DNA of 38,678 bases from Thermomicrobiales bacterium (GCA_035763465.1 DASUBC010000137.1:1-38678), one strand, 5' to 3'. Shown: positions 918 to 38,521, counted from the stretch's first letter. Made by a program: numbers and translations. The notes: generated by a model not told the origin, from the sequence alone.

Positions 918-1444
918 CGGCCGATGACCTGGCGGCTACTGCCCTCTGGCGCTCCAGGAGGTACTGGCGCGACGTCGCCGAGGGAAGCCGGGTTGCTCGC
1001 TCTCCTCGTTCTGGCCGGCCCCTTACGCCGCCATGGGCGACCGCACACGGATGAGTAAGGCTTTGGGCAACACCCCACGCCGTCTTCGATTCGTTGGCGG
1101 CTAACCCCTTACTTGCCCAGGCCGAGGCGCTGGCGACTACAGCCGTAGCGAAAACGGGGCGTGGATAATCGTAGCGTGGTCCTGGCAGGCGGGCGCCCGA
1201 TCAGCTCACGACCGGCGCCGCCTGCGCTGCTCTGTGCGCCCCGTCCGTCGCGCTGGCTGCGGCGCCCTTTGTATGCACATTCCGACCTGGTGCGCTAATG
1301 TAGGAACGAATACCGGCGGTGCGCTCTCAGTGCACAGCTGGCAATGAAATTGCGATAGCGCGGTAGGTGACAGCCAATCCCAGTCACGATCAGAATGTCT
1401 GCTCTCAGTCAGGAATATACCTGGGACGGAGGTCAGGAGCGGCG

Positions 1445-3205
1445 ATGGAAGACCAGAGGCTTCCGCGGGCCACGACCAACGTAGTCTCGCATCCCAGCAT
1501 ACTCGCGCTGGTATGGCTGCTGACAGCGGTCCTGGTGTGGCCGGGTGGTTGGGCTGCGCAGCCGGCGAGCGCAGCCACACTCCCACCTCCCCCGGCGCCG
1601 CTCATTAGCCGCAACGTGCCTGCCTTCGCCTCCTCCGAAGAGGGCGGCGCGGCCCGCAATGCCAACGACGGCGACTACGCCACCTTCTGGCGGTCCGTGG
1701 GTACACCGGCCTGGCTGGCGTACGACTTATCGAGCGTACCAGCGGCGCAGCGCGGCCAGGTCGTGGTTGCGTGGTACAACGACCCAATGACACCCGATTA
1801 TGACCCCGTACTCATCGGCAAGAACGCCTACAATCTGCCGACTGCCTACACGCTTGAGGCGAACGCCGCTGCTGGTGGCGCGCCACCAGCAGCGGGCTGG
1901 CAGGTGCTCGTCACGGTCACCGACAACATCTATCACTCGCGGCAGCATCTGGTAAACCTCAGCGGCTACAACTGGGTGCGTATCAATGTCAGCACTGTCC
2001 GCGGTGTTCCCGGCAACACCGACGTTGCGCTCAATCTCGACGTTCATGATGCCAGCCAGGGCGCACAGGACGACTGGATGTTCTACGGCGATTACATCTC
2101 GGCGGCGGGGTTCGATCATGCGCCGCGCGGCGTCGGCGCCTTCGCGCAGATCATCAATGCGAGCCAGCCTGGCCGGTTCCCGATTCAGGAGACGGGCGGG
2201 ACAGCGTATATGCAGAGTGGCGACGGCGCGCGCCTGATGAAAGCCTATCTCAACCTCTTCCCCGGTCAGTTCGTCGCACTCAGTTTCGGCACGACCGACG
2301 CTGACTTTTTCGCGGCTAACGACCCGAATCTACCCGCCAATTTCTACGGTAATTACGTAACGATGGTGCAGGCGGTGCTGGCGGACGGCAAGACGCCAGT
2401 CGTGCCGAAGATACCCTGGGGTCGGACACCAAACGCGCAGGCGAATATCCCGCGCCTTAACGCGAAGATTGCTGATCTCTACACCGCCTATCCGCAGATC
2501 ATCCACGGCCCCGACCTCTATGCGTACTTCGCTGGCCACCAGGATCAGATCGCTGCGGACGGCCTGAACCCGACCGACGCTGGCTTTGCGGCACTGCGTC
2601 AGCAGTGGGCGCAGCAAATGCTCCAGAACGTCTATGGCCCCGGCGGTGGGCCGCCCCCGCCGCCGCCGGGCAGCGGTAGTTGCAGCGACGGGCAGCTCTT
2701 TCCCGAGACCGGCAAGTGCGTGCGACAGCCGTTCCTGGCCTACTGGCAGGCGCATGGCGCGCTGGCGATCAATGGCTACCCGATCAGCGATGCATTTACC
2801 GAGACCCTCGAAGACGGCAAGCCATACACCGTCCAGTATTTTGAGCGCGTGCGGATGGAATACCACCCGGAGAACGCCGACCCACAATACCAGGTGCTCC
2901 TCGGCCAGTTCGGGCGGCGCATCCATCCCGCCGACCCTCCTGCGCCGCAACTGCCAGGCGCCGTCTATTTCCAGCAGACGGGCCATAATCTCACCGGGGG
3001 CTTCCTGGCCTACTGGCAGGCAAATGGCGGCCTGGCCCAGTTCGGCTTTCCGATCAGTGAGGTCTTCGGCGAGCAGCTTGAGGACGGCCACACCTACCAG
3101 GTGCAATATTTCGAACGCGCTCGCTTCGAATATCATCCAGAAAATCAACCACCCTACGATATCGAACTCGGCCAGTTCGGGCGCAGGATCCTCGGGAATC
3201 GCTAG
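1445..3205 (+). CDS. secreted discoidin (F5/8 type C, CBM32-like) + degenerate SGNH-fold protein with two C-terminal ~65-aa repeats
   Basis: ATG 1445 is preceded by GGAGG and AGGAG (1427-1439). The N-terminus has a signal-like h-region (ILALVWLLTAVLVW...ASA). NANDGDYATFWRS is a discoidin-type motif shared with the 3619 protein. SGNH blocks are recognisable but altered (GDY, GTTD, DGLNPT). A PPPPPP linker precedes two repeats ending QYFERVRMEYHPEN and QYFERARFEYHPEN. Confidence 0.85.
   Translation: MEDQRLPRATTNVVSHPSILALVWLLTAVLVWPGGWAAQPASAATLPPPPAPLISRNVPAFASSEEGGAARNANDGDYATFWRSVGTPAWLAYDLSSVPAAQRGQVVVAWYNDPMTPDYDPVLIGKNAYNLPTAYTLEANAAAGGAPPAAGWQVLVTVTDNIYHSRQHLVNLSGYNWVRINVSTVRGVPGNTDVALNLDVHDASQGAQDDWMFYGDYISAAGFDHAPRGVGAFAQIINASQPGRFPIQETGGTAYMQSGDGARLMKAYLNLFPGQFVALSFGTTDADFFAANDPNLPANFYGNYVTMVQAVLADGKTPVVPKIPWGRTPNAQANIPRLNAKIADLYTAYPQIIHGPDLYAYFAGHQDQIAADGLNPTDAGFAALRQQWAQQMLQNVYGPGGGPPPPPPGSGSCSDGQLFPETGKCVRQPFLAYWQAHGALAINGYPISDAFTETLEDGKPYTVQYFERVRMEYHPENADPQYQVLLGQFGRRIHPADPPAPQLPGAVYFQQTGHNLTGGFLAYWQANGGLAQFGFPISEVFGEQLEDGHTYQVQYFERARFEYHPENQPPYDIELGQFGRRILGNR
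2726..3187 (+). repeat. two in-frame tandem coding repeats (~190 nt each, 2726-2920 and 2998-3187)
   Basis: Repeat 1: FLAYWQAHGALAINGYPISDAFTETLEDGKPYTVQYFERVRMEYHPEN..LLGQFGRR. Repeat 2: FLAYWQANGGLAQFGFPISEVFGEQLEDGHTYQVQYFERARFEYHPEN..ELGQFGRR. Confidence 0.75.
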
Positions 3206-3253: not shown

Positions 3254-3430
3254 CTCGTCGTGTGCCTATGTCGCTACCTGGCCGGGTATGCCGCCAGTCC
3301 AGGCATACGTCAGGGCGGGCTGCCTGACCTTGTCTAGTACTTTCCACCTAGTCCATCTGGACACAAATGGTGATACCAGCGCCCCGGGTCGTTCGTTACA
3401 CTACCAGCGGACCAATCGGATAGAGATTGG

Positions 3431-3528
3431 ATACTCGTGCTCAGGGCAAAGTCGCCGAAAGGCGGCGGCGCAAAGCTACAGACCTACGGCCCAGTTGGGC
3501 TATGGTGGCTGGGTTGCCTCGGGTGTAT
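3431..3528 (+). promoter_or_regulatory. c-di-GMP-I (GEMM-I) riboswitch-like aptamer in the 5' leader of the GH5-CBM32-SGNH gene
   Basis: - nt 3444-3476 read GGGCAAA-GUCGCC-GAAA-GGCGGC-GGCGCAAAGC, i.e. the conserved GGCAAA and (A/G)CGCAAAGC strands around a GAAA-capped hairpin.
- Helix AGCUAC (3474-3479) / GUGGCU (3505-3510) encloses CCUAC (3483-3487) and UAUGG (3501-3505), resembling the GAAA tetraloop receptor.
- AUAC (3431-3434) / GUAU (3525-3528) can close P1. Confidence 0.7.
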
Positions 3529-3618
3529 TGTTGTGGCCGCTTGCGCTCGCCCAGGATTGGCGCGCCTATGTCGCTCGCGTGATCCCATCCGGCAACCAGC
3601 CCCGGAGAAGACTACCGG

Positions 3619-6432
3619 ATGCTCTTCCGCTCGACTGGCGCTCGCCGGCCGCGAGTGTTGCTGGTTTTCCCTCTTGTCCTCGCGCTCCTGTTTGCCTCGA
3701 CGATTACCGCCTGGCCTTTGCGCGCAGCGCCCGCCAGTACGGCGCCGATGGGGCTGCGCGTCACGGGCACGCAGTTGGTGGATGGGCAGGGGCGGCCGGT
3801 GCGCCTGCTGGGGGTCAACCGCTCGGGCACGGAGTATGCCTGCATCCAGGGATGGGGGATCTTCGATGGCCCCAGCGACGCCGCCTCGGTCCAGGCCATC
3901 GCCGCCTGGCACGCCACTGCGGTCCGCATTCCGCTCAATGAGGATTGCTGGCTAGCCATCAATGGCGCCCCCGCCGCCTACGCTGGCGCTGCCTACCAAC
4001 AGGCGATCCAGGACTATGTGGCGCTGCTGAACCAATATGGTCTGGCGGCGATTCTCGAACTCCACTGGAGCGCGGCGGGGAGTGCCCCGGCGACCGATCA
4101 GCAGCCGATGCCCAATCGCGACCATAGCCTCGTCTTCTGGCGCAGCGTCGCCACCGCCTTCAAGGATAATGGGGCCGTGCTCTTCGACCTCTTCAACGAG
4201 CCATATCCCGATAATAACCAGGATACGCCCGCGGCCTGGGACTGCTGGCAGCAGGGCACCACGGCGACGAACCGCGCAACCTGTCCGGGCAGCGGTTATA
4301 CCTACCAGGCGGCGGGGATGCAGGAGCTAGTCGCGGCGGTGCGGGACACCGGGGCACGCAACGTCATCCTGCTCGGGGGGGTGCAGTACGCCAATGCGCT
4401 CGCGGGCTGGCTGGCGCATCGGCCGGCCGACCCGGCCAATAACCTGGCGGCGGCCTGGCATGTCTATAACTTCAATGTCTGCAACAACGCGGCCTGTTAC
4501 GACAGCACCGCAGCGCCGGTCGCGGCGCAGGCACCGCTCGTGGCCAGTGAGATTGGTGAGAACGACTGTGGCCATAGCTTCATTGACCCACTGATGGCCT
4601 GGCTCGATACGCATGGGGCGGGATACCTGGCCTGGACCTGGGATACCTGGGGCGGCTGTGGGCCGGTGCTCATTTCGCGTTATGACGGCACGTCAACCGC
4701 GTATGGGCAGGGCTTCCGCGATCATCTCGCCGCTATCGCCGCAGCGCCGGCTGCGGCGCCGGGCGGCGCCAGCCCGGTCATCAGCCGCAATGTGCCCGCT
4801 TATGCCTCGGGCGGCTACCCGGCCGGCTATGCCAATGATGACGATTACGCGACGGCCTGGCGCTCGCTGACCACGCCGACGGTGGCTGCGCCACAATGGC
4901 TGGCCTACGACCTCTCAGCGATACCGGCAGCGCGGCGCGCCAGTGTACTCGCCGTCTGGTACAACGACGCGACGAGCGCCTACTGGCAGGGCAATGACGG
5001 CGCCTACTACGGCCAGCCGCGCGATTACACGATTGAGGCCAACGCTGCGGCCGGTGGCGCGCTGCCGGCAGACGGCTGGCAGACGCTGGTGTCCGTCACC
5101 GGCAACACCTACGCGAGCCGCGCCCAGACACTCACGCTGACCGGCTACAACTGGCTGCGACTGCGTGTCACGGCGACCAATGGTGGCGCGGGCAATGCGG
5201 ATGTTGCGGTGCAATTTGACCTTCAGGATCTTAGTGCCGGCGGGAACCGCTGGCTCTTTCTCGGTGATTCGATTACGGCGGAGGGCTTGCGCCATATTAG
5301 CGGTACCGGCGCGGGATGGGCGGGCGGTGACCTGGCCCAGCTCGCGAGCGCGGCCACCAATGGAGCGCGCTTCCCCACCATCGTCAACGGCGGCGTTGGC
5401 GGCACGACGATGGCCTGGGCAGCGCAACATGTGGACGACCTGCTGGCGCCCTTTGCCGGCGATTACGTCGCCATCAGCTATGGCACGAATGACGCGAACA
5501 CTGCCGGCCCACTTTCATCCAGCCAGGTCGTCTCCTACTACCAGCACTTGCTTGCCGTCGTAGACGCCGTTCAGGCGCGCGGCATGGTCGCGGTCGTCGG
5601 CACAATCCCGTGGGGCTGTGCTGGAGACGGCTGGCTTGGTATCAATGCGCGCACACTCAACGACTATGTCGCCGCCCATCTGTGGACCGACCGGCCGGAT
5701 GTCGTGAAGGGGCCAGACCTCTGGACCTTCTATCAGCAGCACCCTGACTTGCTGCGCGACTGCATCCATCCGACCTACGAGTTGGGCGCGGGGGCACTGA
5801 ACGGCTACGAGCAGTATCAGCGCCAATGGCTAAACACGATCGTTGCGGTGTCCGGCAGCGCGAACCCGGCCAGCGCCGCATCCCCGACCGCCGCGACCGC
5901 CCCGCCGCCGGTTGCTGCCAGCGGGGAGGCGCCCGCCGCCCGAGCGCCGCTCGCGCCAGCAGCCGGTACGCTTGTCATCTATGACAATGGTCTTCAGCAT
6001 GGCTTTACAGACGGTTCGTTCAGCGCCTCAGCGCGCAACGCCTGCGATACCAGCGACGCCGTCTCTGCGCCATGCTCCTATGCCATCAGTTATCTCGCCT
6101 GGGGCGGGCTGAATTTCGTGGCGCCAGCGGCCGGCCTTGACACTGGTCCGTACACCCGGCTCGAATGGGTCGTCAATACCCATGGGCAGCCAGTCACGAA
6201 TTTCTCGGTCCTCTTCACCGACAACACTGCTGCTCGCACCGTATTGCACGAGGTGATTCTGTCGCCCGCGAACGTGGTCGCCACGCTGCCGAACGGCTGG
6301 CTGCGCGTCTCGGTTCCGGTGGCTGACCTCAACCCGGCGCATGCTGTTGTCGGATCCGTGCAACTGAAGAACGCCACCGCTGGTCCACTGGCAAGCATCA
6401 ATGTGGACGACGTGCAACTGGTGACGCCCTAA
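3619..6432 (+). CDS. secreted multidomain enzyme: GH5 (cellulase-type) + discoidin/CBM32-like + SGNH esterase + C-terminal beta-sandwich-like domain
   Basis: - ATG 3619 with GGAGAAG upstream; signal peptide RRPRVLLVFPLVLALLFAS..LRAAPAS.
- GH5-type motifs GVNRSGTEYAC, FNEPY (acid/base Glu) and ASEIGE (nucleophile Glu).
- ISRNVPAYAS..YANDDDYATAWRS discoidin motif.
- Intact SGNH blocks GDSITAEG, GGVGGTT, YGTNDA, DCIHPT.
- Ala/Pro linker, then a ~165-aa C-terminal domain. Confidence 0.9.
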   Translation: MLFRSTGARRPRVLLVFPLVLALLFASTITAWPLRAAPASTAPMGLRVTGTQLVDGQGRPVRLLGVNRSGTEYACIQGWGIFDGPSDAASVQAIAAWHATAVRIPLNEDCWLAINGAPAAYAGAAYQQAIQDYVALLNQYGLAAILELHWSAAGSAPATDQQPMPNRDHSLVFWRSVATAFKDNGAVLFDLFNEPYPDNNQDTPAAWDCWQQGTTATNRATCPGSGYTYQAAGMQELVAAVRDTGARNVILLGGVQYANALAGWLAHRPADPANNLAAAWHVYNFNVCNNAACYDSTAAPVAAQAPLVASEIGENDCGHSFIDPLMAWLDTHGAGYLAWTWDTWGGCGPVLISRYDGTSTAYGQGFRDHLAAIAAAPAAAPGGASPVISRNVPAYASGGYPAGYANDDDYATAWRSLTTPTVAAPQWLAYDLSAIPAARRASVLAVWYNDATSAYWQGNDGAYYGQPRDYTIEANAAAGGALPADGWQTLVSVTGNTYASRAQTLTLTGYNWLRLRVTATNGGAGNADVAVQFDLQDLSAGGNRWLFLGDSITAEGLRHISGTGAGWAGGDLAQLASAATNGARFPTIVNGGVGGTTMAWAAQHVDDLLAPFAGDYVAISYGTNDANTAGPLSSSQVVSYYQHLLAVVDAVQARGMVAVVGTIPWGCAGDGWLGINARTLNDYVAAHLWTDRPDVVKGPDLWTFYQQHPDLLRDCIHPTYELGAGALNGYEQYQRQWLNTIVAVSGSANPASAASPTAATAPPPVAASGEAPAARAPLAPAAGTLVIYDNGLQHGFTDGSFSASARNACDTSDAVSAPCSYAISYLAWGGLNFVAPAAGLDTGPYTRLEWVVNTHGQPVTNFSVLFTDNTAARTVLHEVILSPANVVATLPNGWLRVSVPVADLNPAHAVVGSVQLKNATAGPLASINVDDVQLVTP

Positions 6433-6462: not shown

Positions 6463-7719
6463 TCAGCGGCTCGCCCCGGCGGGTGGAATCGCGACTGCCG
6501 GGGCGTGGGCGTCGGCCCAGCCTCGCAGCATCGCCGGATCGGGCGTGCCCCAGGTGTCGCCGTCGCGGAAACTCCAGGCCCAGGCGCCGGCGTAGCCGCC
6601 TGCGTACCAGATGTCGAGGTACGTGTGCAGGTCGGCGACTTTGCTGTGAGCGGCGGGAAATTCCCCCACGACGAGCGGGCGATCAAGGTGCAGGGCTGCC
6701 GCGCGTGTCCCGAAGAGATTATCGGTACTGTAAGGCTGCATCCAGTCGTAATAATGCACCTGGTAGTAATCCAGCCCGAGGCCGGCCCAGTTCTGGAGCC
6801 ACTTCATATCGGCGCAGCCGATCGTTGCGTAGGCACGCGCCGACCGGTGGATGGCTTCGACGGTGCGGCCAGCGAAGGCGCGGAAGGTCGCCAGAGTAAC
6901 CGGCTGCCCTACCTCGTTCGCGACCCGCCCGGCGTCGCTGATCGCCCATTCCGGCTCATTCATTACCTCCCAGGAGAGAATCGCCGGGTGGCCGGCGTAG
7001 CGCTGGAAGAGCGGCTCGAAGACCTTGTTGATGAGCGCGTCCTGGCCGGCCGGCGTCGCGATGATGCTGGCGTGCCCGCCTAATTGTACGCCGTTGTCCG
7101 TCCGCGCGTTCCAGAGGAATCGGTAGTCCAGCAACACGAGATCGAGGCCGAGGTTATGCCGCGTCGCCAGCGCCAGCGCGGCGTCGAAGTCAGGGAAGAC
7201 CCACTGATCGAGACCAGTCGGTAATCCCGTTTCATCGTAGACGATGCCGGCCCGGCCATCGGCAAAGACGAACCAGCGGACCATATGCACGCCGAGCGCC
7301 GCCATCCGGGCGAAATCGGCGTCAACGGTCGCATAGGTCGCGGGATCATGGACGCCATACGCGCCCCAGGCGTTGCCGCCGAAATCGTTGCCGTAGTGAT
7401 AATATGGGTAGTTGAGGCCCAGCAGGAACCATGCTCCGCCGCGCCAGCTCACTGTCCCGGCTGGTCCCGGCGTGGCCGGAACGACGCTGGCGGGTGAGGC
7501 CGCTGTAGGCGCAACCGGCGGCTGTGCCGGGGGTATAGTCGCGGTGGCGGCGCTGGTCGCCGCCGGCGGGCTGGTTGCCGTCGCAGCCGGGGTGCTGGCG
7601 AGGTTGGGTGTAGCCGTTGGCGCTACCGGCGCCGGCGCGGCGCCACACGCCGCTTCGATAAGGACGAGCGCCACCAGCATGACGACCAGCGGCCAGCGGT
7701 GGTATACGGCGATGTTCAT
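6463..7719 (-). CDS. secreted or lipid-anchored clan GH-A (GH5-like) glycoside hydrolase
   Basis: ATG 7719 is preceded by GGGAG; an alternative start lies at 7749. The N-terminus is a hydrophobic leader ending in Cys (LVLIEAAC), followed by a Pro/Ala/Thr linker. WEVMNEPEW (acid/base) and VVGEFPA (nucleophile) are spaced as in (beta/alpha)8 retaining hydrolases. Confidence 0.85.
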   Translation of the reverse strand: MNIAVYHRWPLVVMLVALVLIEAACGAAPAPVAPTATPNLASTPAATATSPPAATSAATATIPPAQPPVAPTAASPASVVPATPGPAGTVSWRGGAWFLLGLNYPYYHYGNDFGGNAWGAYGVHDPATYATVDADFARMAALGVHMVRWFVFADGRAGIVYDETGLPTGLDQWVFPDFDAALALATRHNLGLDLVLLDYRFLWNARTDNGVQLGGHASIIATPAGQDALINKVFEPLFQRYAGHPAILSWEVMNEPEWAISDAGRVANEVGQPVTLATFRAFAGRTVEAIHRSARAYATIGCADMKWLQNWAGLGLDYYQVHYYDWMQPYSTDNLFGTRAAALHLDRPLVVGEFPAAHSKVADLHTYLDIWYAGGYAGAWAWSFRDGDTWGTPDPAMLRGWADAHAPAVAIPPAGASR

Positions 7720-7977
7720 GGCACTCCCGTTGCGACCTGGATGTCCCACGACGTCATTCCCGGTTCGCCGCGTGCGCTGGTATCGTGAGCACTGCGGTCG
7801 AATCTCGCAAGATCGTGACCGGCATCTCTTTTGCTGCCTGTGCCCGCACGGGTGAACCAGTTATGGTCGTCACCGACCCCTGGAGGCGTGCTAGCATGGG
7901 CAACCTGTGGTTGGCATGGCGCGGAGCCAACGTGCAGCAACTGGCCGCTCACGACCAGGAAAGGGTGCTGTCTCAAC

Positions 7978-9693
7978 GTGAGTTCTGTACGGAGCTGCAC
8001 ATGTATCGCTCGTGCCATACTGCTCGCGGGTGTGCTCGCCGGCCTGGCCGGATGTACTGCTGGCCGGGCCATCCCAACACCCACGGCATCCTCCCGGGCT
8101 ACGTCAACGCCCGTAGCGCCGCCGACGCCCACCGCCATTGTGGTGACACCGACCACTGTGCAGAGTCCGACACCCTCCCCGGTGGCTACTCCGAGTCCGC
8201 CGCCGCCCAATCCCTTGCTCTCGCGCGGGCAGCCGACTGCGCCGCCTGAGAGTGCGGTGGTAAGTGGGCACTACTGCGGCTACCCGGCCTGGCACGCGAC
8301 GACCTTCCCGACCACCGTTGCGATCCATGTCGGGTCTGGCTTTGAGCAACTCCTGCTCAGCTGGAACAGCGCCACGACGACCGATTACGTCGCTCTCGAC
8401 CATGCCCCTACCTACGGTATCCCCGCCGACTACACTATCGCCGTCTCCGCTGATTCGACCGATGGCAGCAATGGTACCTGGCGCGAGGTTGTTCGCGTGC
8501 AGGGGAACACCGCGCGCACCCGCGCCCACCGCTTTCCAGCGACCGATGCTGCCTGGGTACGCATGACAGTAACTGCGCTTGCGCCGGGTACCGCCGGTGG
8601 AGCACTGGCGATTGATGAAATAGACATCCACGATGCCTCACGCGGCGCTGCCGACACCGTCTTTTTCATGGGCGACTCTATTACCGCCGCCGCCTTCTCC
8701 CGTTGCGATACCCGGCAGCCGTCGTTCGCCGAACTGGTCCACCGCGCTGCTCCCGGCCGCTTCCCCGCCATGATTGACGGGGGAGTCGGGGGGACGAATA
8801 GCGCGTATGGCCTCCAGGTAGTCAATGACTGGCTGGCGCTGAACCCCGACTTCGCTATCTGGGCGATCGGCTTCGGCACCAACGATGCCTGGCAAGGGGT
8901 GGCGCCGGCTGTCTTCGAACAGCAGATTGAAGCACTGGTCGAGCGCATTAGCGCGGCAGGACGGCGACCGGTGCTGGCGCGCATCCCCTATGCCACTGGC
9001 GGGCCGCCGGACGCCAATGTGCAGGCCCTCAACGCGGTGATTGATCGCATCACCACCCGCGATCACCTCTTGCCCGGCCCGGACCTCTATGCCTGGTTCA
9101 AAGCCAATCCGGGCGAGCTCAGTCCTGACGGCGTCCACCCAACCGACGCTGGCGCGCGCTCGATCAATCGCCTGTGGTACGAGGCGCTACGCCCATTGTA
9201 CGGTGCGGCCTCGCGATCACCCCGTGAGCCGGATGGCCCGCGCCGCCTGACCGGCGACGACGGCGCGCGGTGGAACATCTTTCGTTACGATGGCCCCCGC
9301 ACCGATTATCGCGTCGTCACCAATCGTGACGCCCTTGAGCACGAGCGCACGGCAGCCAAGCCAGACCCGGTCGCCGATGTAGACCGGCTTTGCCACCGGC
9401 GCGGCGCCGGCGATCCCGTGCTGATCCGTATCCATGATCACGACGTCCCAGGCGATCTTGCAGTCGCGGCCGATACGTACCTCCTGCTGGGCGATTATCT
9501 CGGTGTTGCGGTTCAGGTAGGTACCATTGCCAATACTGATGTGCGCGCCGCGCCAGCATTCCAGGCGCACGCCCGGATAGAAGGTGCAATTGGCGGCTTC
9601 GATGTACCCGCCGTCATTCCGGATGACGAGCGGTGGCCACCCCGGTTCGCGCACCAGCAGCCCGGCCCGGGAGAACGATCGGCGCAGCAGTAG
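7978..9693 (+). CDS. lipoprotein with a beta-sandwich (discoidin-like) domain + intact SGNH esterase; the functional 3' end is uncertain
   Basis: GTG 7978 lies downstream of GGAAAGGG; the track start, TTG 7831, is less likely. The lipobox is LAGLAGC, followed by a Thr/Pro linker. SGNH blocks are GDSITAAA, GGVGGTNS, FGTNDA, DGVHPTDAG. The domain appears complete by about nt 9215, but the frame has no stop until 9693. Confidence 0.7.
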   Translation: MSSVRSCTCIARAILLAGVLAGLAGCTAGRAIPTPTASSRATSTPVAPPTPTAIVVTPTTVQSPTPSPVATPSPPPPNPLLSRGQPTAPPESAVVSGHYCGYPAWHATTFPTTVAIHVGSGFEQLLLSWNSATTTDYVALDHAPTYGIPADYTIAVSADSTDGSNGTWREVVRVQGNTARTRAHRFPATDAAWVRMTVTALAPGTAGGALAIDEIDIHDASRGAADTVFFMGDSITAAAFSRCDTRQPSFAELVHRAAPGRFPAMIDGGVGGTNSAYGLQVVNDWLALNPDFAIWAIGFGTNDAWQGVAPAVFEQQIEALVERISAAGRRPVLARIPYATGGPPDANVQALNAVIDRITTRDHLLPGPDLYAWFKANPGELSPDGVHPTDAGARSINRLWYEALRPLYGAASRSPREPDGPRRLTGDDGARWNIFRYDGPRTDYRVVTNRDALEHERTAAKPDPVADVDRLCHRRGAGDPVLIRIHDHDVPGDLAVAADTYLLLGDYLGVAVQVGTIANTDVRAAPAFQAHARIEGAIGGFDVPAVIPDDERWPPRFAHQQPGPGERSAQQ

Positions 9694-9834
9694 GCCCAGA
9701 AAGAGACTGAGGAGTGAATGCTGGTGAAGCCGGTGGCGGACGCGCGCTAGAAGCGTTGCACTATTGGCGCGGCGGCTGGCGATAGCTGTTTGCTGGTGTG
9801 TAGTCGCCGGGGAATACTGCTCCAAATGTTTCAT
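9217..9834 (-). CDS. left-handed beta-helix (hexapeptide repeat) sugar O-acyltransferase
   Basis: Hexapeptide repeats IGNGTYLNRNTEII..IGRDCKIAWDVVI..IGDRVWLGCRALVLKGVTIGDDAIIGAGAIV. ATG 9834 overlaps the upstream stop as ATGA (9831-9834). Confidence 0.85.
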   Translation of the reverse strand: MKHLEQYSPATTHQQTAIASRRANSATLLARVRHRLHQHSLLSLFLGLLLRRSFSRAGLLVREPGWPPLVIRNDGGYIEAANCTFYPGVRLECWRGAHISIGNGTYLNRNTEIIAQQEVRIGRDCKIAWDVVIMDTDQHGIAGAAPVAKPVYIGDRVWLGCRALVLKGVTIGDDAIIGAGAIVTKDVPPRAVVAGQAARAIRLTG

Positions 9835-11480
9835 CGCGTTGCCTCGATGCCAACCTGTGGACTATCGGCCGCCACGCGAGCGCCAGAGAACGCCTGGCGC
9901 AGCAAGAGAGCATGGCAGACCGCCTGCGCCAGGCCGAAACCGAGGACGAGGAGCGGACGCGACTCATGTGCGAAGGTCAGTGAGTAGGCGATGCCACCAC
10001 TCAACACAACGAGGGCGGCGAGCTGCGGCAGCAGCCACAGGGGATTGAGCTGGCCCCCGGCGACTTTTGGCGTCGGGCGGAAGGCGAGTGGCACGCGCAG
10101 GACCGCCAGCAGCCAGGCCAGCGCATAGACGGGCCAGGTGGCGTACACCAGCGCAGTCGCGCGCCAGAGCGGTGTCTGGGGCGTCGTGGGATGTCGCCAG
10201 AAGTTGAGCGCAACCTGCCGGATCACGACCATCATGATTCCCAGCGGTACAAGATGAATCAGGTACTGGTGGAAATTGACCTGAGCAACGCGGCTGCCGG
10301 CGAGCAGTAGCGCCGCGACAAAGAAAATGTGGACGGCGGCAACCGGGCCAATCCAGTAGTAGGTCATGCGGACGCCGTACACCACCCGTTGTCGCCACGT
10401 CAGGCGGAGAAAGAGGCGCGGGTAGGCGATGAGCAGGAGCTCGAAGACACCGCGCGCCCACTTCAGTTGCTGCGTGAACCAGGCGGCGAGGTCGGGCGGC
10501 GCAAGGCCAGGCGCCAGCGGTTCGGCGACATACACGGAACGCCATCCCGCCGCGTGCAGCGCCAGCGAGGTCATCAGGTCTTCGGCCAGGCCGGGCTGAT
10601 AACCGCCAATCGACTCCAGCGCCGTCCGCCGGATGAGCGCGTTGCTGCCAATTAGTGTGGCACAGCCCAGGCCATCCGCGCCCATCGAGGTGGGATTATA
10701 GAAGTCCAGCGTGCTCTCGGCTGCCGCTCGCGCGACCCAGCTCTGCGCGCTGTTGCAGAAGGTGAGCATCACCTGCACAAAGCCTACCGCCGGGTCGGCG
10801 AAATAGCCGATTGATCGTTCCAGGAACGCCGGGGCCGGCGCGTGATCAATGTCGAAGATGGCGACAACATCTCCGGTGGTGCGCGCCAGCGCGGCGTTCA
10901 GATTTCCCGCCTTGGCGTCTTTCCGGCCTGTGCGGACCAGATAACCCGCGCCGAGCTGCGCCGCCAGGCGCTCGCACGCCGGCTCAGCACCGTCGTCCAG
11001 CAGCCAGGTGCGATGCGCGCCGCGCATGACGACCGCTGCCGACAAGGCGCGCTCGATGAGCGGCAGCGGTTCGCCGCATGCGGTCACGAAGACATCAACT
11101 GTCAGGCCAGCTGGCCGAGACGGCGGCGCAGGACGGCGCCGGGCACACAGGTACAAGAGCCACTGGCCGATGACCTGGAACCAGTTGTAGAACGCGGCAC
11201 AGGCAAGGGCGAACGCAAGCCAGGGCGTCGCCAGCCGGCCGCCGTGTCGCCACCAGCTCAGGTAATAGCCCATGGCGGCGAGCCCGAGCAGCACCAGCCC
11301 GCCGAGTGTCCAGGTCCGCCAGCCGGCGGCGAACCAGGTGCTGCACCCGCGCCAGCCATGCGCCAGTGCGCCCAGCAGGCCCGGTGGACCGGCCACGTTC
11401 GCCGGTACTCCGGTCGCACCATGTGCTGCTGGCGATGGCGCGACATCGTCAAAATTGTCGCCGTGGTACGCTCTCACCAT
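9831..11480 (-). CDS. membrane-embedded processive GT2 beta-glycan synthase, BcsA/CelA-like, without a PilZ domain
   Basis: ATG 11480 directly follows AGGAGGGGAGG; the track start at 11519 is less likely. Motifs: LLDDG, DAKAGNLNAAL, FDIDHAP, GSNALIRR, AEDLMTS, QQLKWARG (the D,D,D,QxxRW set). Transmembrane helices flank the catalytic domain. The C-terminus is transmembrane-only. Confidence 0.9.
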   Translation of the reverse strand: MVRAYHGDNFDDVAPSPAAHGATGVPANVAGPPGLLGALAHGWRGCSTWFAAGWRTWTLGGLVLLGLAAMGYYLSWWRHGGRLATPWLAFALACAAFYNWFQVIGQWLLYLCARRRPAPPSRPAGLTVDVFVTACGEPLPLIERALSAAVVMRGAHRTWLLDDGAEPACERLAAQLGAGYLVRTGRKDAKAGNLNAALARTTGDVVAIFDIDHAPAPAFLERSIGYFADPAVGFVQVMLTFCNSAQSWVARAAAESTLDFYNPTSMGADGLGCATLIGSNALIRRTALESIGGYQPGLAEDLMTSLALHAAGWRSVYVAEPLAPGLAPPDLAAWFTQQLKWARGVFELLLIAYPRLFLRLTWRQRVVYGVRMTYYWIGPVAAVHIFFVAALLLAGSRVAQVNFHQYLIHLVPLGIMMVVIRQVALNFWRHPTTPQTPLWRATALVYATWPVYALAWLLAVLRVPLAFRPTPKVAGGQLNPLWLLPQLAALVVLSGGIAYSLTFAHESRPLLVLGFGLAQAVCHALLLRQAFSGARVAADSPQVGIEATR

Positions 11481-11519
11481 AGCCTCCCCTCCTGCCTTCG
11501 CGGAGCTGGAATGTCGCAC

Positions 11520-25090: not shown

Positions 25091-25130
25091 GGACAACAAA
25101 AACCGGCAGACGTCAATGCGTCGGCCGGTT
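25091..25130 (-). terminator. canonical intrinsic terminator on the minus strand
   Basis: The minus strand reads AACCGGCCGACG-cattg-CGTCTGCCGGTT (11 of 12 bp) followed by TTTTTGTTGT. It lies just upstream of the EPS operon promoter region. Confidence 0.55.
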
Positions 25131-25679
25131 GCACCACTGGCTCAGCGCGGACATAGGTGCCCAAATACTGCCCGCGCGTCGTCGCCGCCGTCGTCACGAG
25201 TTGTCCGAGTGGTCGAACCCTTGGCCGCTCCCTGCCGGCCCGTTAGCTGTTCGCGACGGCGGACTTGATCGCCGCGCTTCCTAATTGCAAGTTCCATGCC
25301 ATTGCCGCTCCCCGTGCGGGAAACCGGCAGTTGGTCAGGCGCTCACGTGGATAGAGACGCTCGCTGCTCGATATTGTCACTGGCGAGTAGCAAGTGAGTG
25401 GGGGAGCCTGCATCGCCTCGAGGCGGAGTGGGCGGCCGCAACGGCTGAATGAGCGTCGCTGCCCGCACCACGAGCGCGCTGCTCGCACATGGTATTCCAT
25501 GTCGGGTACTGTCAGGTACGGCTTTCTGGCACGAACAACGGCGAGGGGTTGCCATATTGCAGCGAACCCCCCATTGTTCCTCGCTACAAGGTGTGTGAAC
25601 AGGCTACCTCCTCGACTGCGCCGCTTCGTCGTATACTCACGGGAGACCCGAGGCTGGCATACAAGGGCGAGGCACGGCG

Positions 25680-28600
25680 ATGTCCCCAGCATTGCAGCAG
25701 CCGACAGTCTGCCCGGTCGTCATTGGGCGGGGCGCGCAGCTAGCCGCGCTTGACACCGTGCTGGATACCGTCGCCGCAGGACACGGACAAACGCTCGCGC
25801 TCACTGGCGAGGCAGGCATCGGCAAGTCGCGGCTCGTCGCCGAGCTACGCACGCGCGCCGCTGCCCGGGACATGCTGGTCTGCGAGGGCCGCTGCTTCGA
25901 GCCCGATCGCGTGGTTCCCTATGCGCCGCTGCGCGATCTCGTGCGCGCCGACCTGGCCCAACAAACGCCTGAGGCGATCACCGCCGCCCTCACCCCCAAC
26001 GCCGCGCAGCTCGCACGACTGCTCCCCGAACTCGCCCGGTTTCTGTCTCCCACCGTTCTCGCCGCTCCGAGCGCACCCGAGCAGGACCGACACCTGCTCG
26101 CCCAGGCTCTCGTCCAGTACATCACGCGGCGCAGCCACGGGCGTCCGGCGCTCGTCATTATCGAAGACCTGCACTGGAGCGACGACGCCAGCCTCGACGC
26201 GCTGCCAGCCTTCGCGCGCGGACTGGCCGCCCAGCCGATCGTCCTCCTGCTCACCTACCGCAGTGACGAGATCACCCCGAACCTGCGCCACGCGCTCGCG
26301 CTCCTCGACCGGGAGCGCCGGCTCGCCGAGATGACGCTGCCGTGCCTCGCGCCCGCCGAAGTTGATGCGCTGCTCCGGGCGATCTTCGAGCAGCCACAGC
26401 CGATCCGCGCCGGCTTCCTGCAAGCAATCTGCGACCTCACCGATGGCAATCCCTTCTTCATCGAGGAGGTCATTCGCTCGCTGATCGCCGGGGGAGACAT
26501 CTTCCGCAGCGGCCAGCGCTGGGAACGGCGCGACCTGGCGCAGCTGCAAATCCCGCGCAGCGTCCAGGATGCGGTGCTGCGGCGCATCGCTCGCCTCAGC
26601 GCGGAAGAGACACACCTGCTGCATCTGGCCGCAGTCGCGGGGCGGCGTTTCGATTTCGCGGTGCTGCAAGCGCTCACGGGCGCCGAGGAAGCGCGCCTGA
26701 TTGCGCTCGTGCAACCCCTGATCGCCGCGCAGCTCGTCGTCGAGGAGTCTGCGGACCACTTCGCCTTCCGCCATGCGCTCACGCGACAGGCGATCTACAC
26801 GGCGCTGCTCACCCGCGAACGCCGACTCCTCCACCGCGCCATCGGCGAGGCGCTGGAGCAGCTCCACGCGACCAGGGCTGAGGAGGTGCTCGCCGATCTC
26901 TCCGACCATTTCGCGGCGGGCGAGGACTGGGTCAAAGCGCTGGAGTATGGGGGGCGTGCGGGCGAGCAGGCGCTGGCGCTCTCCGCGCCCCGCGCCGCCA
27001 CCGAGCACTTCACCAGGGCGCTCGACGCGGCGCGCCACCTGGCGATCGCCCCGCCCTGGCGCCTGCACCGCCAGCGCGGCCAGGCGCTCGGTCTGCTGGG
27101 CGAATTCGCGGCTGCCCTGGCAGATCACCAGGCCGCGCTGGCGGCGGCGCGGTCCAACGACGAGCGCCGCGCCGAATGGCAGTCGCTCCTCGATCTCGGC
27201 GGACTCTGGGCAGGGTACGATTACGCGCGCGCGGGCGAATACCTCCAGCAAGCCCTGGCGCTGGCGCGCGAGATCGACGACCCGAAGTTGCTCGCCGAGA
27301 GCCTGGCCGAGGTAGGCGGTTGGCGCCTCAACACCGAGCAGGTCGATCAGGCCGAACGCTCCCTCCAGGACGCGCTCACGATCTTCGAGCGCAGCGGCGA
27401 TCGTTCTGGTGTCGCGCGGGCGACCGATCTTCTCGGCACGGTCAGCGACATCGCGGGCGACATTCCTCAGATGCGGCGGCGGTATGAGCGCGCCGCCGCG
27501 CTGTATCGCGACCTTGGCGATCAGCAGGGGCTTTCCTCGACCCTGGCCACGATGCTGCTCCAGGGCGGCGGCTTTGTTTTCGACACCGTCGTCGTTGCGC
27601 CCGGTGTCGCCCCGGACGCGGTCGTGGCGGAAGCAACCGAGGCGCTCGCGCTGGCGCGCGACATCGGCTGGCGCGCGGGCGAGGCGTATGCCCTGCTCGA
27701 ACTGGCCGTCTGGTACACCCATCGCGGCCAGTACGGCAGCGCGCTCGACCACGCCCGCGAAGGCTTAGCAATTGCCACGGAGATCGAACATGGTGAGTGG
27801 ATGACCGCTGGCGAAAGCACCCACGGTGTCATCTTCGCCGGACTCCTCGCTCAGGCTGCGGCAGACGATCACCTCAGCCAGGCACACGCGCTGGCGCGTG
27901 CGAGTGGCTCGCAGCACTTCGTCGCGCTCGCCGCCGCCCTCTGGGCCGAACTTCGTGCAGAGCAGGGCAACCACGCCGGGGCGGGGGCGCTGCTGGCGTC
28001 ATTCGCGTCCGACTTGCCGATGCGCACGCTCGGGCAGCGGCGCGTCTGGGCTGCGCGGGCCGCGCTCGCGCTCGCGCAAGGTGATTCCGACAGCGCACTC
28101 GCCATCCTCGACCAGTTGTTCTCGCGGGCCATCAACCTGACGAGCGAGGGGGATATCCCGCTGCTGGCACTCTTGCGCGGCCGGGCGCTCGCCGCGCTCG
28201 ACCGGCACGACGAAGCGGAGGCGGCCTTGCGCGCGGCGATCCGGGGGGCCGATGCGCGCGGACATCGGCCCCTGGTATGGCGCAGCCACGCAGCGCTAGG
28301 CCGCTGCTACGCCGCGTGGGCGAGGCAGGAGGCGGCGCGGAAGGAATATCGTCTGGCGTGGGAGATCGTGGAGGAGCTTGCGGCCACGCTTCCAGATGGA
28401 CCGCTGCGCGCGGGATTCCTGGCGCAGGTTGCTCAAGGCGTGCCTCGCGAAGCGTCCCGCGCAAACCGGCGGCACGCCGCCACGCTGACCGCGCGCGAAC
28501 AGGACGTCGCCGCGCTCGTGGCGCGCGGCCACTCCAACCGTGAGATCGCCGCCACCCTCTCGATCGGCGAGCGCACAGTTGAGACGCATGTCAGCAATAT

Positions 28601-28682
28601 CCTCGGCAAACTGGCCGTCACGTCGCGCACGCAGGTTGCCGACTGGGTGCAGAAGGCCACACCGGGCCACCGGGAGGTCTGA
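25680..28682 (+). CDS. large ATP-binding LuxR-family regulator (LAL/MalT-like: AAA ATPase + TPR-like repeats + C-terminal LuxR HTH)
   Basis: P-loop LTGEAGIGKSRLV and Walker B LVIIEDLHWSD. A long helical-repeat region follows. The C-terminal LTAREQDVAALVARGHSNREIAATLSIGERTVETHVSNILGKL is a LuxR-type HTH. Confidence 0.9.
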   Translation: MSPALQQPTVCPVVIGRGAQLAALDTVLDTVAAGHGQTLALTGEAGIGKSRLVAELRTRAAARDMLVCEGRCFEPDRVVPYAPLRDLVRADLAQQTPEAITAALTPNAAQLARLLPELARFLSPTVLAAPSAPEQDRHLLAQALVQYITRRSHGRPALVIIEDLHWSDDASLDALPAFARGLAAQPIVLLLTYRSDEITPNLRHALALLDRERRLAEMTLPCLAPAEVDALLRAIFEQPQPIRAGFLQAICDLTDGNPFFIEEVIRSLIAGGDIFRSGQRWERRDLAQLQIPRSVQDAVLRRIARLSAEETHLLHLAAVAGRRFDFAVLQALTGAEEARLIALVQPLIAAQLVVEESADHFAFRHALTRQAIYTALLTRERRLLHRAIGEALEQLHATRAEEVLADLSDHFAAGEDWVKALEYGGRAGEQALALSAPRAATEHFTRALDAARHLAIAPPWRLHRQRGQALGLLGEFAAALADHQAALAAARSNDERRAEWQSLLDLGGLWAGYDYARAGEYLQQALALAREIDDPKLLAESLAEVGGWRLNTEQVDQAERSLQDALTIFERSGDRSGVARATDLLGTVSDIAGDIPQMRRRYERAAALYRDLGDQQGLSSTLATMLLQGGGFVFDTVVVAPGVAPDAVVAEATEALALARDIGWRAGEAYALLELAVWYTHRGQYGSALDHAREGLAIATEIEHGEWMTAGESTHGVIFAGLLAQAAADDHLSQAHALARASGSQHFVALAAALWAELRAEQGNHAGAGALLASFASDLPMRTLGQRRVWAARAALALAQGDSDSALAILDQLFSRAINLTSEGDIPLLALLRGRALAALDRHDEAEAALRAAIRGADARGHRPLVWRSHAALGRCYAAWARQEAARKEYRLAWEIVEELAATLPDGPLRAGFLAQVAQGVPREASRANRRHAATLTAREQDVAALVARGHSNREIAATLSIGERTVETHVSNILGKLAVTSRTQVADWVQKATPGHREV

Positions 28683-34962: not shown

Positions 34963-35015
34963 ATCCTAGGGTGCGACTGCGAGCGCACTGCGACCGCTGT
35001 GCGACCGCACTGCGA
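34963..35015 (-). promoter_or_regulatory. four tandem 11-bp repeats (SARP-box-like) abutting a TAGGAT -10-like hexamer
   Basis: The TGCGA core occurs at 34978, 34989, 35000 and 35011, exactly 11-nt phased (unit caCTGCGAccg), plus an out-of-phase copy at 34972. On the minus strand these read TCGCAGT. The proximal repeat ends 7 nt upstream of TAGGAT (34968-34963). Confidence 0.5.
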
Positions 35016-35135
35016 TCACAGCCCGCGCGTTCAGCCCATGCGATCGCCAGCCCTTGCGCCAGCGGCGATCCTGGCCGACAATGGGGCGACTCCGATCAGG
35101 TTCGCTACCCATCCGCCGTGGTAAAGGTTGGGGAG

Positions 35136-38447: not shown

Positions 38448-38521
38448 TGGCTGGGCTGCAGGGATTCGAACCCCAACTTTCTGATCCAGAGTCAGACGTC
38501 CTACCGTTAGACGACAGCCCA
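38448..38521 (-). tRNA. tRNA-Gln (anticodon CUG), CCA encoded
   Basis: The minus strand reads TGGGCTG-TC-GTCT-AACGGTA-GGAC-G-TCTGA-CTCTGGA-TCAGA-AAGT-TGGGG-TTCGAAT-CCCTG-CAGCCCA-G-CCA. This folds as a cloverleaf with the U1-A72 pair and G73 discriminator typical of bacterial tRNA-Gln. Confidence 0.9.

Follow-up and report, generated by a model that had tools for sequence, protein, structure and literature searches.

A c-di-GMP-I riboswitch aptamer in the 5' UTR of a gene for a secreted GH5/CBM32-like/SGNH enzyme, beside a Thermomicrobiales exopolysaccharide operon with a predicted c-di-GMP-II riboswitch

The stretch of DNA analysed here (the window) comprises 38,678 nucleotides from a Thermomicrobiales bacterium (GCA_035763465.1, DASUBC010000137.1:1-38678). 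It carries the gene of a secreted multidomain enzyme next to an exopolysaccharide (EPS) operon, each with a c-di-GMP aptamer in its leader:

3434-3523, plus strand: c-di-GMP-I (GEMM-I, type 1) aptamer, including P1
3619-6432, plus strand: GH5/CBM32-like/SGNH gene, 937 codons for amino acids
9217-24888, minus strand: Wzx/Wzy-type EPS operon
25093-25129, minus strand: intrinsic terminator of the operon leader
25114-25198, minus strand: c-di-GMP-II aptamer of the operon leader

The 937-aa protein starts with a signal peptide, followed by a GH5 domain with cellulase relatives in the PDB (residues 54-342; PF00150, E 1.5e-24, 87.4 bits against a cut-off of 23.5), a middle module (around residues 383-545) and an SGNH/GDSL domain (residues 547-719; PF00657, Lipase_GDSL, 34.2 bits against 23.6). 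An Ala/Pro linker and a C-terminal beta domain of unknown family complete it. Orthologues also match PF13472, and a 99% identical protein is found in a Thermomicrobiales MAG. A first-pass annotation of the sequence had described a secreted GH5-CBM32-SGNH enzyme, and Pfam agrees for the GH5 and SGNH domains. The middle module is sub-threshold by sequence (PF00754, F5/8-type-C, 19.6 bits, below the cut-off of 28.2 and over 40 residues only) but CBM32-like by fold: the best Foldseek matches of its model (pLDDT 80.5) were the CBM32 chitosan-binding structures 4zy9, 4zxe and 4zz5 (E 2e-6, TM 0.59-0.74), with more CBM32 and factor V/VIII C2 domains behind them. According to this model, the module has a discoidin/CBM32 fold.

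As previously described, this gene adjoins the EPS operon, and the order GH5-SGNH, hypothetical, GDSL, GT2 and so on is common to the related loci L001 and L003. By Pfam content, the operon encodes a GT2 with a cellulose-synthase-like core that lacks PilZ, a further GT2, two CoA_binding_3/Bac_transf priming transferases, GT4s, a Wzz-like protein, P-loop proteins, a Wzy_C polymerase, a Wzx flippase, a PIG-U/GT87-like membrane protein and two hexapeptide acyltransferases. The latter fit an acylated polymer, a possible substrate of the SGNH esterase.

The GEMM-I identity proposed for the leader of the enzyme gene held up in an Rfam covariance-model search, in which RF01051 (c-di-GMP-I/GEMM-I) matched positions 3435-3521 on the plus strand significantly (74.7 bits, gathering score 35, E 4.8e-13) and over its full length (model positions 1-87 of 87). 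Our own covariance model R1, built from 39 independent metagenomic aptamers, scored the window at 88.9 bits, and the GGCAAA-N12-26-CGCAAA core pattern had an expectation of 0.03 in shuffles of the window; with these values the match lies far beyond chance. All segments of the two GEMM-I strands first noticed at 3444-3476 are present, namely GGGCAAA (3444-3450), GUCGCC (3451-3456), GAAA (3457-3460), GGCGGC (3461-3466) and GGCGCAAAGC (3467-3476). The 3' end of the aptamer (3521-3523) is located 96-98 nt upstream of the ATG at 3619, close to the earlier estimate of about 90 nt, and the element lies in the 5' UTR, in cis and in the orientation of the gene that follows. It is thus an ordinary further member of a well-known RNA family. 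We assign a probability of roughly 0.8 to 3434-3523 being a genuine type 1 c-di-GMP-I aptamer in the 5' UTR of the secreted-enzyme mRNA, with a putative translational mechanism for which OFF is favoured; from the sequence, we infer that c-di-GMP gates the GH5 gene. The helices and ligand-contacting nucleotides, the latter mapped with the RF01051 alignment and the residue list of the Vc2 structure 3IRW, are as follows:

3434-3439 with 3518-3523, plus strand: P1, with one U.U mismatch, assigned by inspection of the sequence and because L002 and L098 conserve it
3446-3471, plus strand: P2, a 2-bp stem (3446-3447/3470-3471) and a 6-bp stem (3451-3456/3461-3466), from the Rfam alignment
3474-3515, plus strand: P3 in the Rfam register, with the 11-nt GAAA-tetraloop receptor (CCUACG 3483-3488, UAUGG 3501-3505) and a distal stem (3489-3492/3497-3500)
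3445, plus strand: G equivalent to ligand contact G20 of Vc2 (model position 11)
3472, plus strand: A equivalent to A47 of Vc2, which intercalates between the two ligand guanines, and the first residue of the AAA linker
3517, plus strand: C equivalent to C92 of Vc2, a Watson-Crick ligand contact

In the published description of GEMM-I RNAs (Weinberg 2007, PMC1950547), the first hairpin consists of a 2-bp and a 6-bp stem with a 3-nt internal loop between them and is capped by a GNRA loop, and AAA serves as the linker. All these elements are found at 3446-3471 and in the AAA at 3472-3474, which joins the first hairpin to the second: the two stems are separated by 3-nt internal loops, and the tetraloop is GAAA (3457-3460). 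Among the 39 relatives, the 6-bp stem of P2 shows compensatory changes at 6 of 6 pairs and is 99.1% paired, and P3 in the Rfam register (A3474-U3515 to C3484-G3504) is 99% paired with compensatory changes, one pair covarying as GC, AU and CG. Slid-register controls reached 30-48%, against 99% for P2 and P3. The bases described earlier as receptor-like, CCUACG and UAUGG, are found at their assigned places, and their reading as an 11-nt receptor stands, in an AC-platform form (CCUACG, not CCUAAG). The helix in which they had been placed, AGCUAC/GUGGCU, was rejected as the P3 register, with 70.5% of cells supporting it across the 39 family members versus 99% for the Rfam register. The AC platform is a natural receptor variant that is thermodynamically equivalent and neutral for GAAA binding (PMC2275092); the GAAA loop with its AC-platform receptor matches the AA form in function.

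The interhelical pair C44-G83 of Vc2 corresponds to C3469 and G3508, and columns C35 and G74 are invariant in our alignment A1. An A at the position of G20 marks cGAMP specificity; since 3445 carries G, we rejected a GEMM-Ib assignment. The c-di-GMP-I-GGC variant (RF03167) was likewise rejected, because position 47 (3472) is A and not G, and RF01051 is the best match within the clan.

Conservation of the element among orthologues, which the first-pass annotation had suggested as a check, turned out to be partial. Class I aptamers precede GH5 genes 61-62% identical to that of the window in L002 (74.7 bits), L098 (73.8 bits), L100 (66.2 bits, with U at the C92 position) and L004 (a type-2 form, 72 bits); the type-2 relatives in L004 and L005 scored best against RF03167. 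The copy in L017 is decayed and falls below the Rfam gathering score, and we did not find the aptamer in the syntenic locus L001, even at E<=10, nor in L046 or L003. R1 matched in only 3 of the 80 GH5 loci of the genome collection, the decayed L017 copy among them. We therefore rejected the notion that the element is universal among orthologues. Such patchiness, with absence from L001 and L046 and visible decay in L017, is what one would expect if the element were a relic without ligand binding or gene control, and the U at the C92 position in L100 and the U.U mismatch in P1 of the window point the same way. However, the window copy, at 74.7 bits, has lost none of the conserved core nucleotides or helices, in contrast to the decayed one of L017, which drops below the gathering score; the P1 mismatch is also kept in L002, and the anti-aptamer helix described below is conserved. 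Both a relic and a sensor of another dinucleotide, such as 3'3'-cGAMP, are hence very improbable, the G at position 20 arguing against cGAMP and the A at position 47 against the GGC variant. The leaders with intact, C92U, decayed and absent aptamers instead form a small natural series for riboswitch gain and loss.

The EPS operon leader was found to contain an aptamer of a second class. RF01786 (c-di-GMP-II) matched 25198-25114 on the minus strand over its full length (70.2 bits, gathering score 53.5, E 5.9e-14), and an intrinsic terminator overlaps its 3' end, with a stem of ACCGGCCGACG and CGUCUGCCGGU (25129-25102) and then UUUUGUUGU. Its 5' arm (25129-25119) lies inside the aptamer, and it appears in the MFE and centroid folds alike; a simple scan for terminators overlooked it on account of a single internal mismatch. 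Riboswitches of the c-di-GMP-II class are ON switches with a terminator, and the copy on the EPS operon is predicted to be an ON switch too. In L139-L142, where the homologues of the first EPS gene share 51-57% identity and the loci may be non-orthologous, no class II riboswitch was found ahead of these homologues. The earlier statement that no other leader of the window has a similar motif is thus right for class I, for which R1 has a single match, and wrong for class II. A related proposal, that second-messenger input may have been transferred to RNA on the degradative side, started from a BcsA-like synthase without PilZ. The domain is indeed missing: we found no PilZ (PF07238) in the GT2 at 9831-11519 at E<=0.001, and its last 131 residues gave none at E<=1 either. 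This absence carries little weight as an argument, because the cluster is of the Wzx/Wzy type (flippase, Wzy_C, Wzz-like and priming Bac_transf proteins), where the GT2 does not have to be a processive synthase of the BcsA type. The class I element does sit on the degradative side, but a c-di-GMP-II riboswitch and terminator precede the biosynthetic operon as well, so that RNA-level c-di-GMP input would be present on both sides. A scan for sigma-70 promoters found none in the class I or class II leader.

Between the class I aptamer and the coding region, MFE folds, duplex energies and RNAalifold outline three further elements:

3526-3585, plus strand: spacer between the aptamer and the switching strand, an imperfect hairpin in MFE folds
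3586-3603, plus strand: switching strand
3604-3621, plus strand: ribosome-binding region, with the Shine-Dalgarno (SD) sequence GGAG (3604-3607) and AUG (3619-3621), the first start codon of the ORF

The spacer has a similar length in L002, L098 and L017. The switching strand has two predicted pairings, one with the 3' side of the aptamer (3507-3518/3591-3601 and 3521-3525/3586-3590) and one in which CAUCCGG (3586-3592) binds CCGGAUG (3615-3621), with duplex energies of -24.8 kcal/mol for the anti-aptamer helix versus -12.7 kcal/mol for the strand with the AUG region. The anti-aptamer helix is part of the unconstrained MFE of the window and of L002, and RNAalifold predicted the long-range helix in 4 of 4 leaders (window, L002, L098 and L017), ending directly 5' of the SD; in the window it ends at C3603 and abuts GGAG. 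An intrinsic terminator for this leader was rejected: the three weak scan matches fall in the upstream gene on the other strand, inside the aptamer and inside the coding region, and none is conserved in L002, L098 or L017. Both the lack of an intrinsic terminator in the platform and the conserved helix joining the aptamer 3' strand to the stretch just 5' of the SD suggest that class I control is probably translational.

In the mechanism that we propose, control would be exerted at translation initiation or, secondarily, via Rho or mRNA decay. Without ligand, strand 3586-3601 would capture the aptamer 3' side (3507-3525) in a 16-bp long-range helix at the expense of P3 and P1, and the start region would stay relatively open. 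If c-di-GMP binds co-transcriptionally, the aptamer would retain its own 3' side, and the released C-rich strand (CAUCCGG 3586-3592 and CC 3602-3603) could pair with CCGGAUG 3615-3621 and the SD region, so that translation falls. Nearest-neighbour energies put the modelled aptamer-locked fold 8-16 kcal/mol behind the alternative in stability, and switching must therefore rely on ligand and tertiary energy and on co-transcriptional kinetics. On balance we lean towards this OFF polarity.

The opposite polarity, with a genuine c-di-GMP-I riboswitch acting as an ON switch, is possible but doubtful. Here the free-state 16-bp helix, stacked on a small SD hairpin, would block 30S loading, and ligand would dissolve the helix to give a single-stranded standby site, so that the enzyme is made together with EPS for BcsZ- or PslG-like processing. 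GEMM-I switches are known both as ON (Vc1, Bc2) and as OFF (Cd1), and the geometry allows either, since the helix end at C3603 adjoins GGAG in 4 of 4 leaders and the predictions for either state, the free one included, contain the SD hairpin (CCGGAG/CU.CCGG). Opening the ribosome-binding site nevertheless costs less, not more, in the free state: the aptamer-locked and alternative values are 9.2 and 6.0 kcal/mol for the window, and the four leaders give 9.2/6.0, 13.7/5.5, 9.8/3.6 and 12.2/7.3 kcal/mol. This difference is no better than that of shuffles, as 17-44 of 100 shuffles of the released strand reached the bound-state opening cost; the shuffle control makes it a composition effect, not a sequence-specific one, and the modelled opening energies support OFF weakly. 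Accessibility changes were small in local folds, and whole-leader constrained folds and unpaired probabilities were ambiguous on ON versus OFF. Also against ON are the choice of CAUCCGG between GGGUG of P1 and CCGGAUG at the start, a three-strand arrangement usual for OFF switches, and the L100 orthologue, where the short P1 3' strand runs straight into an SD (GGAGG) that overlaps it. The biology of the locus leans the other way. The GH5 gene is a conserved member of a biosynthetic locus. A co-expressed glycanase is a requirement of many EPS operons, and the glycanases of EPS loci, BcsZ and PslG for instance, are often expressed along with synthesis, a pattern that would favour an ON switch.

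A third reading keeps the aptamer but makes its output transcriptional or post-transcriptional, through a Rho-utilisation or RNase site that is exposed or hidden in the 97-nt C-rich spacer. The lack of an intrinsic terminator in this leader, the G+C content of the organism (64-66%), the C-rich and, with the aptamer bound, unstructured released strand, and the modest modelled changes in ribosome-binding-site accessibility are all compatible with it. We consider it unlikely, as the class II riboswitch of the same genome uses a classical terminator of hairpin and U tract, and the switching strand abuts the SD in four orthologues, the geometry expected of translational control.

If class II is ON and class I is OFF, high c-di-GMP would lead to more polymer synthesis and less of the secreted glycanase/esterase. 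Tentatively, the two unrelated classes may therefore form an RNA-only reciprocal circuit, in which a class II antiterminator turns EPS on and a class I translational switch turns the glycanase/deacetylase off. If true, a single messenger would control the assembly as well as the trimming of one polymer, without any protein receptor of the PilZ type. To our knowledge, c-di-GMP signalling is essentially unstudied in Chloroflexota and Thermomicrobiales, and a search of the papers available to us turned up nothing relevant about Chloroflexi GEMM RNAs or nested aptamers. The riboswitch class itself has been known since 2007-2008, and the general picture of riboswitches is unchanged. What the locus adds is a candidate regulator for an otherwise anonymous secreted GH5/CBM32-like/SGNH enzyme; in an uncultured Thermomicrobiales lineage, it also probably links both this enzyme and the neighbouring EPS operon to c-di-GMP. 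With the class II element 19 kb away, it offers a compact natural test bed for the division of labour over one polysaccharide.

The aptamer shares with Vc2 of Vibrio cholerae (RF01051, PDB 3IRW) the three-helix junction and the P2 GAAA tetraloop docked on the 11-nt receptor of P3, here known from sequence, as well as the GGCAAA...CGCAAAG core strands, the contacts G20, A47 and C92 and the interhelical pair C44-G83. It differs in its AC (not AA) platform, the U.U mismatch in P1, a G+C content of 64%, a 97-nt platform without terminator and the regulated gene, a secreted GH5/CBM32-like/SGNH enzyme at a Chloroflexota EPS locus. The 3'3'-cGAMP sensors of Geobacter (GEMM-Ib) and the c-di-GMP-I-GGC and -UAU variants have the same fold and belong to the same Rfam clan (CL00126), but with G at 20, A at 47 and its best score for RF01051, the window carries the canonical c-di-GMP signature.

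In terminator-based GEMM-I switches (Cd1 of C. difficile, Bc1 and Bc2 of B. thuringiensis), as in the window, a competing helix takes the 3' part of the last aptamer hairpin, a platform design described for GEMM-I (Weinberg 2007, PMC1950547). In the window, by contrast, this helix has no U tract after it and abuts the SD, which again makes control probably translational. The c-di-GMP-II copy (RF01786) in the same window shares its ligand with class I, but it has an unrelated fold, is overlapped by a terminator at the aptamer 3' end and sits on the biosynthetic operon, not on the glycanase. Finally, the combination of a secreted glycoside hydrolase and SGNH esterase beside an acyltransferase-containing polysaccharide operon recalls enzymes of the BcsZ, PslG, PelA and AlgL/AlgX type. 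These are usually encoded inside the operon, and c-di-GMP acts there through proteins (PilZ, PelD, FleQ), whereas the GH5 gene of the window is a separate unit with a riboswitch of its own.

A scan of the entire window against Rfam at gathering thresholds gave three matches: RF01051 (c-di-GMP-I, GEMM-I), RF01786 (c-di-GMP-II) and one tRNA at 38451–38521 (−), a tRNA-Gln(CUG) whose full extent is 38448–38521. The first of these confirmed the class I riboswitch that the first-pass annotation had read in front of ATG 3619, as nucleotides 3435–3521 (+) matched positions 1–87 of the 87-position model with 74.7 bits (gathering score, 35; E = 4.8e-13). The bases quoted in that annotation were all found in place, including GGCGCAAAGC at 3467–3476. 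The core pattern GGCAAA-N12–26-CGCAAA had 0.03 expected occurrences in window shuffles, and chance is ruled out.

Features of the class I leader. The first eight lines are from the window sequence, the next six from covariance-model alignment and the last four from Vc2-numbering mapping.
3444–3450 (+), GGGCAAA
3451–3456 (+), GUCGCC
3457–3460 (+), GAAA
3461–3466 (+), GGCGGC
3467–3476 (+), GGCGCAAAGC
3483–3488 (+), CCUACG
3501–3505 (+), UAUGG
3619 (+), start codon ATG
3434–3439/3518–3523 (+), P1, with a U.U mismatch also present in L002
3446–3447/3470–3471 (+), P2 2-bp stem
3451–3456/3461–3466 (+), P2 6-bp stem with GAAA cap
3472–3474 (+), AAA linker
3474–3484/3504–3515 (+), P3
3489–3492/3497–3500 (+), P3 distal stem
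G3445 (+), Vc2 G20 equivalent
A3472 (+), Vc2 A47 equivalent
C3517 (+), Vc2 C92 equivalent
C3469–G3508 (+), Vc2 C44–G83 equivalent

This architecture is that of the GEMM element described by Weinberg et al, 2007 (PMC1950547). Vc2 numbering was anchored by the 3IRW contact list (G14, C15, A16, C17, A18, G19, G21, C46, A47, A48, A49 and G50; PMC7288161) together with the statement that the ligand contacts are G20, A47 and C92 and that the C-G interhelical pair is universal (PMC4744006). All four equivalents are present. Since G20A changes ligand specificity between c-di-GMP and cGAMP (PMC7288161), the G found at position 20 favours c-di-GMP over cGAMP. In CCUACG/UAUGG, the 11-nt GAAA receptor takes its AC-platform form; according to Geary et al, AC occurs naturally and leaves Kd and specificity unaffected when it replaces AA (PMC2275092). 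The element carries all of the defining features of RF01051 that are open to an in silico test. Assignments to the cGAMP and GGC variants were rejected, because the aptamer fails at the defining positions of both.

A pattern scan of metagenome contigs yielded 55 loci with AC-platform-receptor aptamers, from which 39 distinct aptamers with a regular P3 were aligned. The Rfam structure was 96.8% paired on these sequences, against 30–48% for slid controls. Compensatory changes were found at 6/6 pairs of the P2 6-bp stem and at three of the four distal P3 pairs, and GC/AU/CG covariation at one proximal P3 pair; the search pattern fixed many core columns and left these covarying stem positions free. 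In contrast, the P3 register first proposed, AGCUAC/GUGGCU, was just 70.5% paired across the family, with three pairs failing in 19–25 of the 39 aptamers, and is a coincidental alternative in the window sequence alone. The covariance model built from this alignment (R1) scored the window aptamer at 88.9 bits and found no second class I element in the window. The earlier statement that no similar motif occurs in other leaders thus holds for class I, but not for class II, which has an element at 25198–25114 (−). In four metagenome contigs (L085, L086 at 1521–1685, L099 and L103), we also observed a type-1 GEMM-I with a complete type-2 GEMM-I inside its P3 distal loop, nested rather than in tandem. 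The inner aptamers scored 63–67 bits with R1, the outer halves being read from sequence, and a literature search found no description of this arrangement.

The downstream gene, ORF 3619–6432 (+), for which 3619 is the earliest possible start following a stop, encodes a protein with a signal-peptide-like N-terminus, a GH5 domain (residues 54–342) and a GDSL/SGNH domain (residues 547–719); the closest protein, at 99% identity, is from a Thermomicrobiales MAG. In the stretch between the two domains, an F5/8-type-C match was sub-threshold by sequence (19.6 vs 28.2 bits). However, the AlphaFold2 model of residues 383–545 (pLDDT 80.5) matched best, among PDB entries, 4zy9, 4zxe and 4zz5, which are chitosan-binding CBM32 modules (E ~2e-6, TM 0.59–0.74), and then further CBM32 and discoidin domains. 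The CBM32 label given earlier therefore probably holds at the fold level.

Aptamers in the orthologous leaders.
L002: protein 61% identical; aptamer intact, 74.7 bits
L098: gene start only; aptamer intact, 73.8 bits
L100, 3816–3902 (−): GH5 62% identical; 66.2 bits despite U in place of the C92 equivalent and a C.C mismatch within P2; SD GGAGG directly after P1
L004: GH5 61% identical; type 2, 72 bits; best match RF03167, yet A at position 47
L017, 5592–5681: Thermomicrobiales, 55% identical; aptamer decayed (GGCAAU, loop CCAGAA, CGCAAG)

The element is thus kept in four orthologues but not in all. The L017 copy, which has lost tetraloop, receptor and two core As together, scored 44.5 bits with R1 and fell under the Rfam gathering score. 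No aptamer was found in the syntenic L001 (63% identical), even at E ≤ 10, in the full-length orthologue L046, or within the 205 nt upstream sequence of the syntenic L003. R1 matched 3/80 GH5 loci of the genome collection, the decayed copy among them. The association between aptamer and gene is recurrent but patchy.

Features of the EPS locus.
25093–25198 (−), class II element, aptamer plus terminator (RF01786 match; hairpin then U tract)
24888 down to 9217 (−), Wzx/Wzy-type EPS cluster (gene content)

The class II aptamer (70.2 bits; gathering score, 53.5) lies within the 790 nt that precede the first EPS gene, which starts at GTG 24888 or ATG 24882 (−) and heads an operon of 13–16 genes. A terminator hairpin, ACCGGCCGACG-CAUUGA-CGUCUGCCGGU (25129–25102, −), takes its 5' arm and the beginning of its loop from the final 16 nt of the aptamer; it is followed by UUUUGUUGU and appears in MFE and centroid folds alike. 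As aptamer and terminator are mutually exclusive, ligand should give read-through, and this anatomy predicts an ON switch. In four other contigs, homologues of the operon's first gene lack a class II element. The proposal that c-di-GMP input may have moved to the RNA level on the degradative side needs widening, since the class II element places such input on the synthetic side of this genome too. Divergent from the class II leader is one of two large STAND-type regulators, AAA_16-TPR-LuxR at 25680–28682 (+); the other is BTAD-NB-ARC-TPR at 34971–37955 (+).

The EPS cluster encodes a GT2, a priming Bac_transf, GT4s, Wzz-like and P-loop proteins, a Wzy_C polymerase, a Wzx flippase, two hexapeptide acyltransferases and a GT2 with a cellulose-synthase-like core. 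As had been noted, the latter has no PilZ domain, even at E ≤ 1 on the C-terminus, which is unremarkable in a Wzy-dependent cluster. L001 and L003 share the gene order GH5-SGNH / hypothetical / GDSL / GT2 and onwards, indicating that the GH5-SGNH enzyme is a conserved member of the locus. Two other conserved genes, 1367–3205 (+) and 6463–7749 (−), have no Pfam family; the former gave a weak F5/8-type-C hint and the latter weak GH2/GH42 TIM-barrel hints, and their products may be further glycan-acting proteins. L001 has same-position counterparts of both, and L003 of 6463–7749. The GDSL ORF 7831–9693 (+) overlaps by 476 nt the hexapeptide-acyltransferase ORF 9217–9834 (−), which is start/stop-coupled to the GT2 at 9831. 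Because both have Pfam matches, it is doubtful where the GDSL gene really ends; its ORF may contain a frameshift or have a long tail that is spurious.

Around the class I aptamer, promoter-like boxes GATACC-N19-TACACT were read by eye at 3372–3402 (+) and, with identical spacing, at L002 560–590, in both cases 43–44 nt before GGCAAA; a sigma-70 scan did not flag them. If these candidate boxes are a promoter, the transcript would begin some 25 nt upstream of P1. The aptamer is flanked by two perfect copies of a 12-nt direct repeat, GCCTATGTCGCT, at 3264–3275 and 3564–3575 (+), exactly 300 nt apart (0.22 expected in the entire window at ≤1 mismatch). This repeat is absent from L002, and is possibly a protein site, an insertion remnant or chance.

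No conserved intrinsic terminator was found 3' of the class I aptamer. Folded without constraints, the window leader has an MFE structure that lacks P3 and P1 and pairs 3507–3518 with 3591–3601 and 3521–3525 with 3586–3590. This long-range anti-aptamer helix (16 bp; duplex energy, −24.8 kcal/mol) also appears in the L002 MFE, and RNAalifold on the aligned window, L002, L098 and L017 leaders predicted it in 4/4, stopping one nucleotide 5' of the SD. With the aptamer forced, CAUCCGG 3586–3592 can pair with CCGGAUG 3615–3621 (−12.7 kcal/mol). The P1 strand GGGUG resembles GGAUG of the start region, and such look-alike P1 and start strands are the usual three-strand OFF design.

Cost of opening the RBS (−15 to +6; kcal/mol).
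Window leader: aptamer locked 9.2, alternative fold 6.0
L002 leader: aptamer locked 13.7, alternative fold 5.5
L098 leader: aptamer locked 9.8, alternative fold 3.6
L017 leader: aptamer locked 12.2, alternative fold 7.3

In these models opening costs more with the aptamer locked in all four leaders, which speaks against an ON switch, in which c-di-GMP would raise expression. However, shuffling the released strand reached the real opening cost in 17–44 of 100 trials, an SD hairpin was predicted in both states and shifts in local accessibility were small. These points count against the OFF evidence and keep ON a live rival, and because of them we favour an OFF switch, with c-di-GMP lowering expression, at about 60%. 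Biological precedent goes either way: the GH5-SGNH enzyme could serve in dispersal or act as a co-expressed glycanase in processing.

By its sequence, the class I element is assigned to an already known riboswitch family, RF01051. Three things are of mild interest: both c-di-GMP riboswitch classes occur together at a single EPS locus in a Thermomicrobiales, the orthologues offer a natural series that runs from intact through mutated and decayed copies to absence, and the class I platform has no terminator. As in known GEMM platforms, the competing helix recruits the 3' portion of the aptamer's final hairpin (PMC1950547); whereas in those platforms the helix precedes a U tract, here it abuts the SD, and class I control is for this reason most likely translational.
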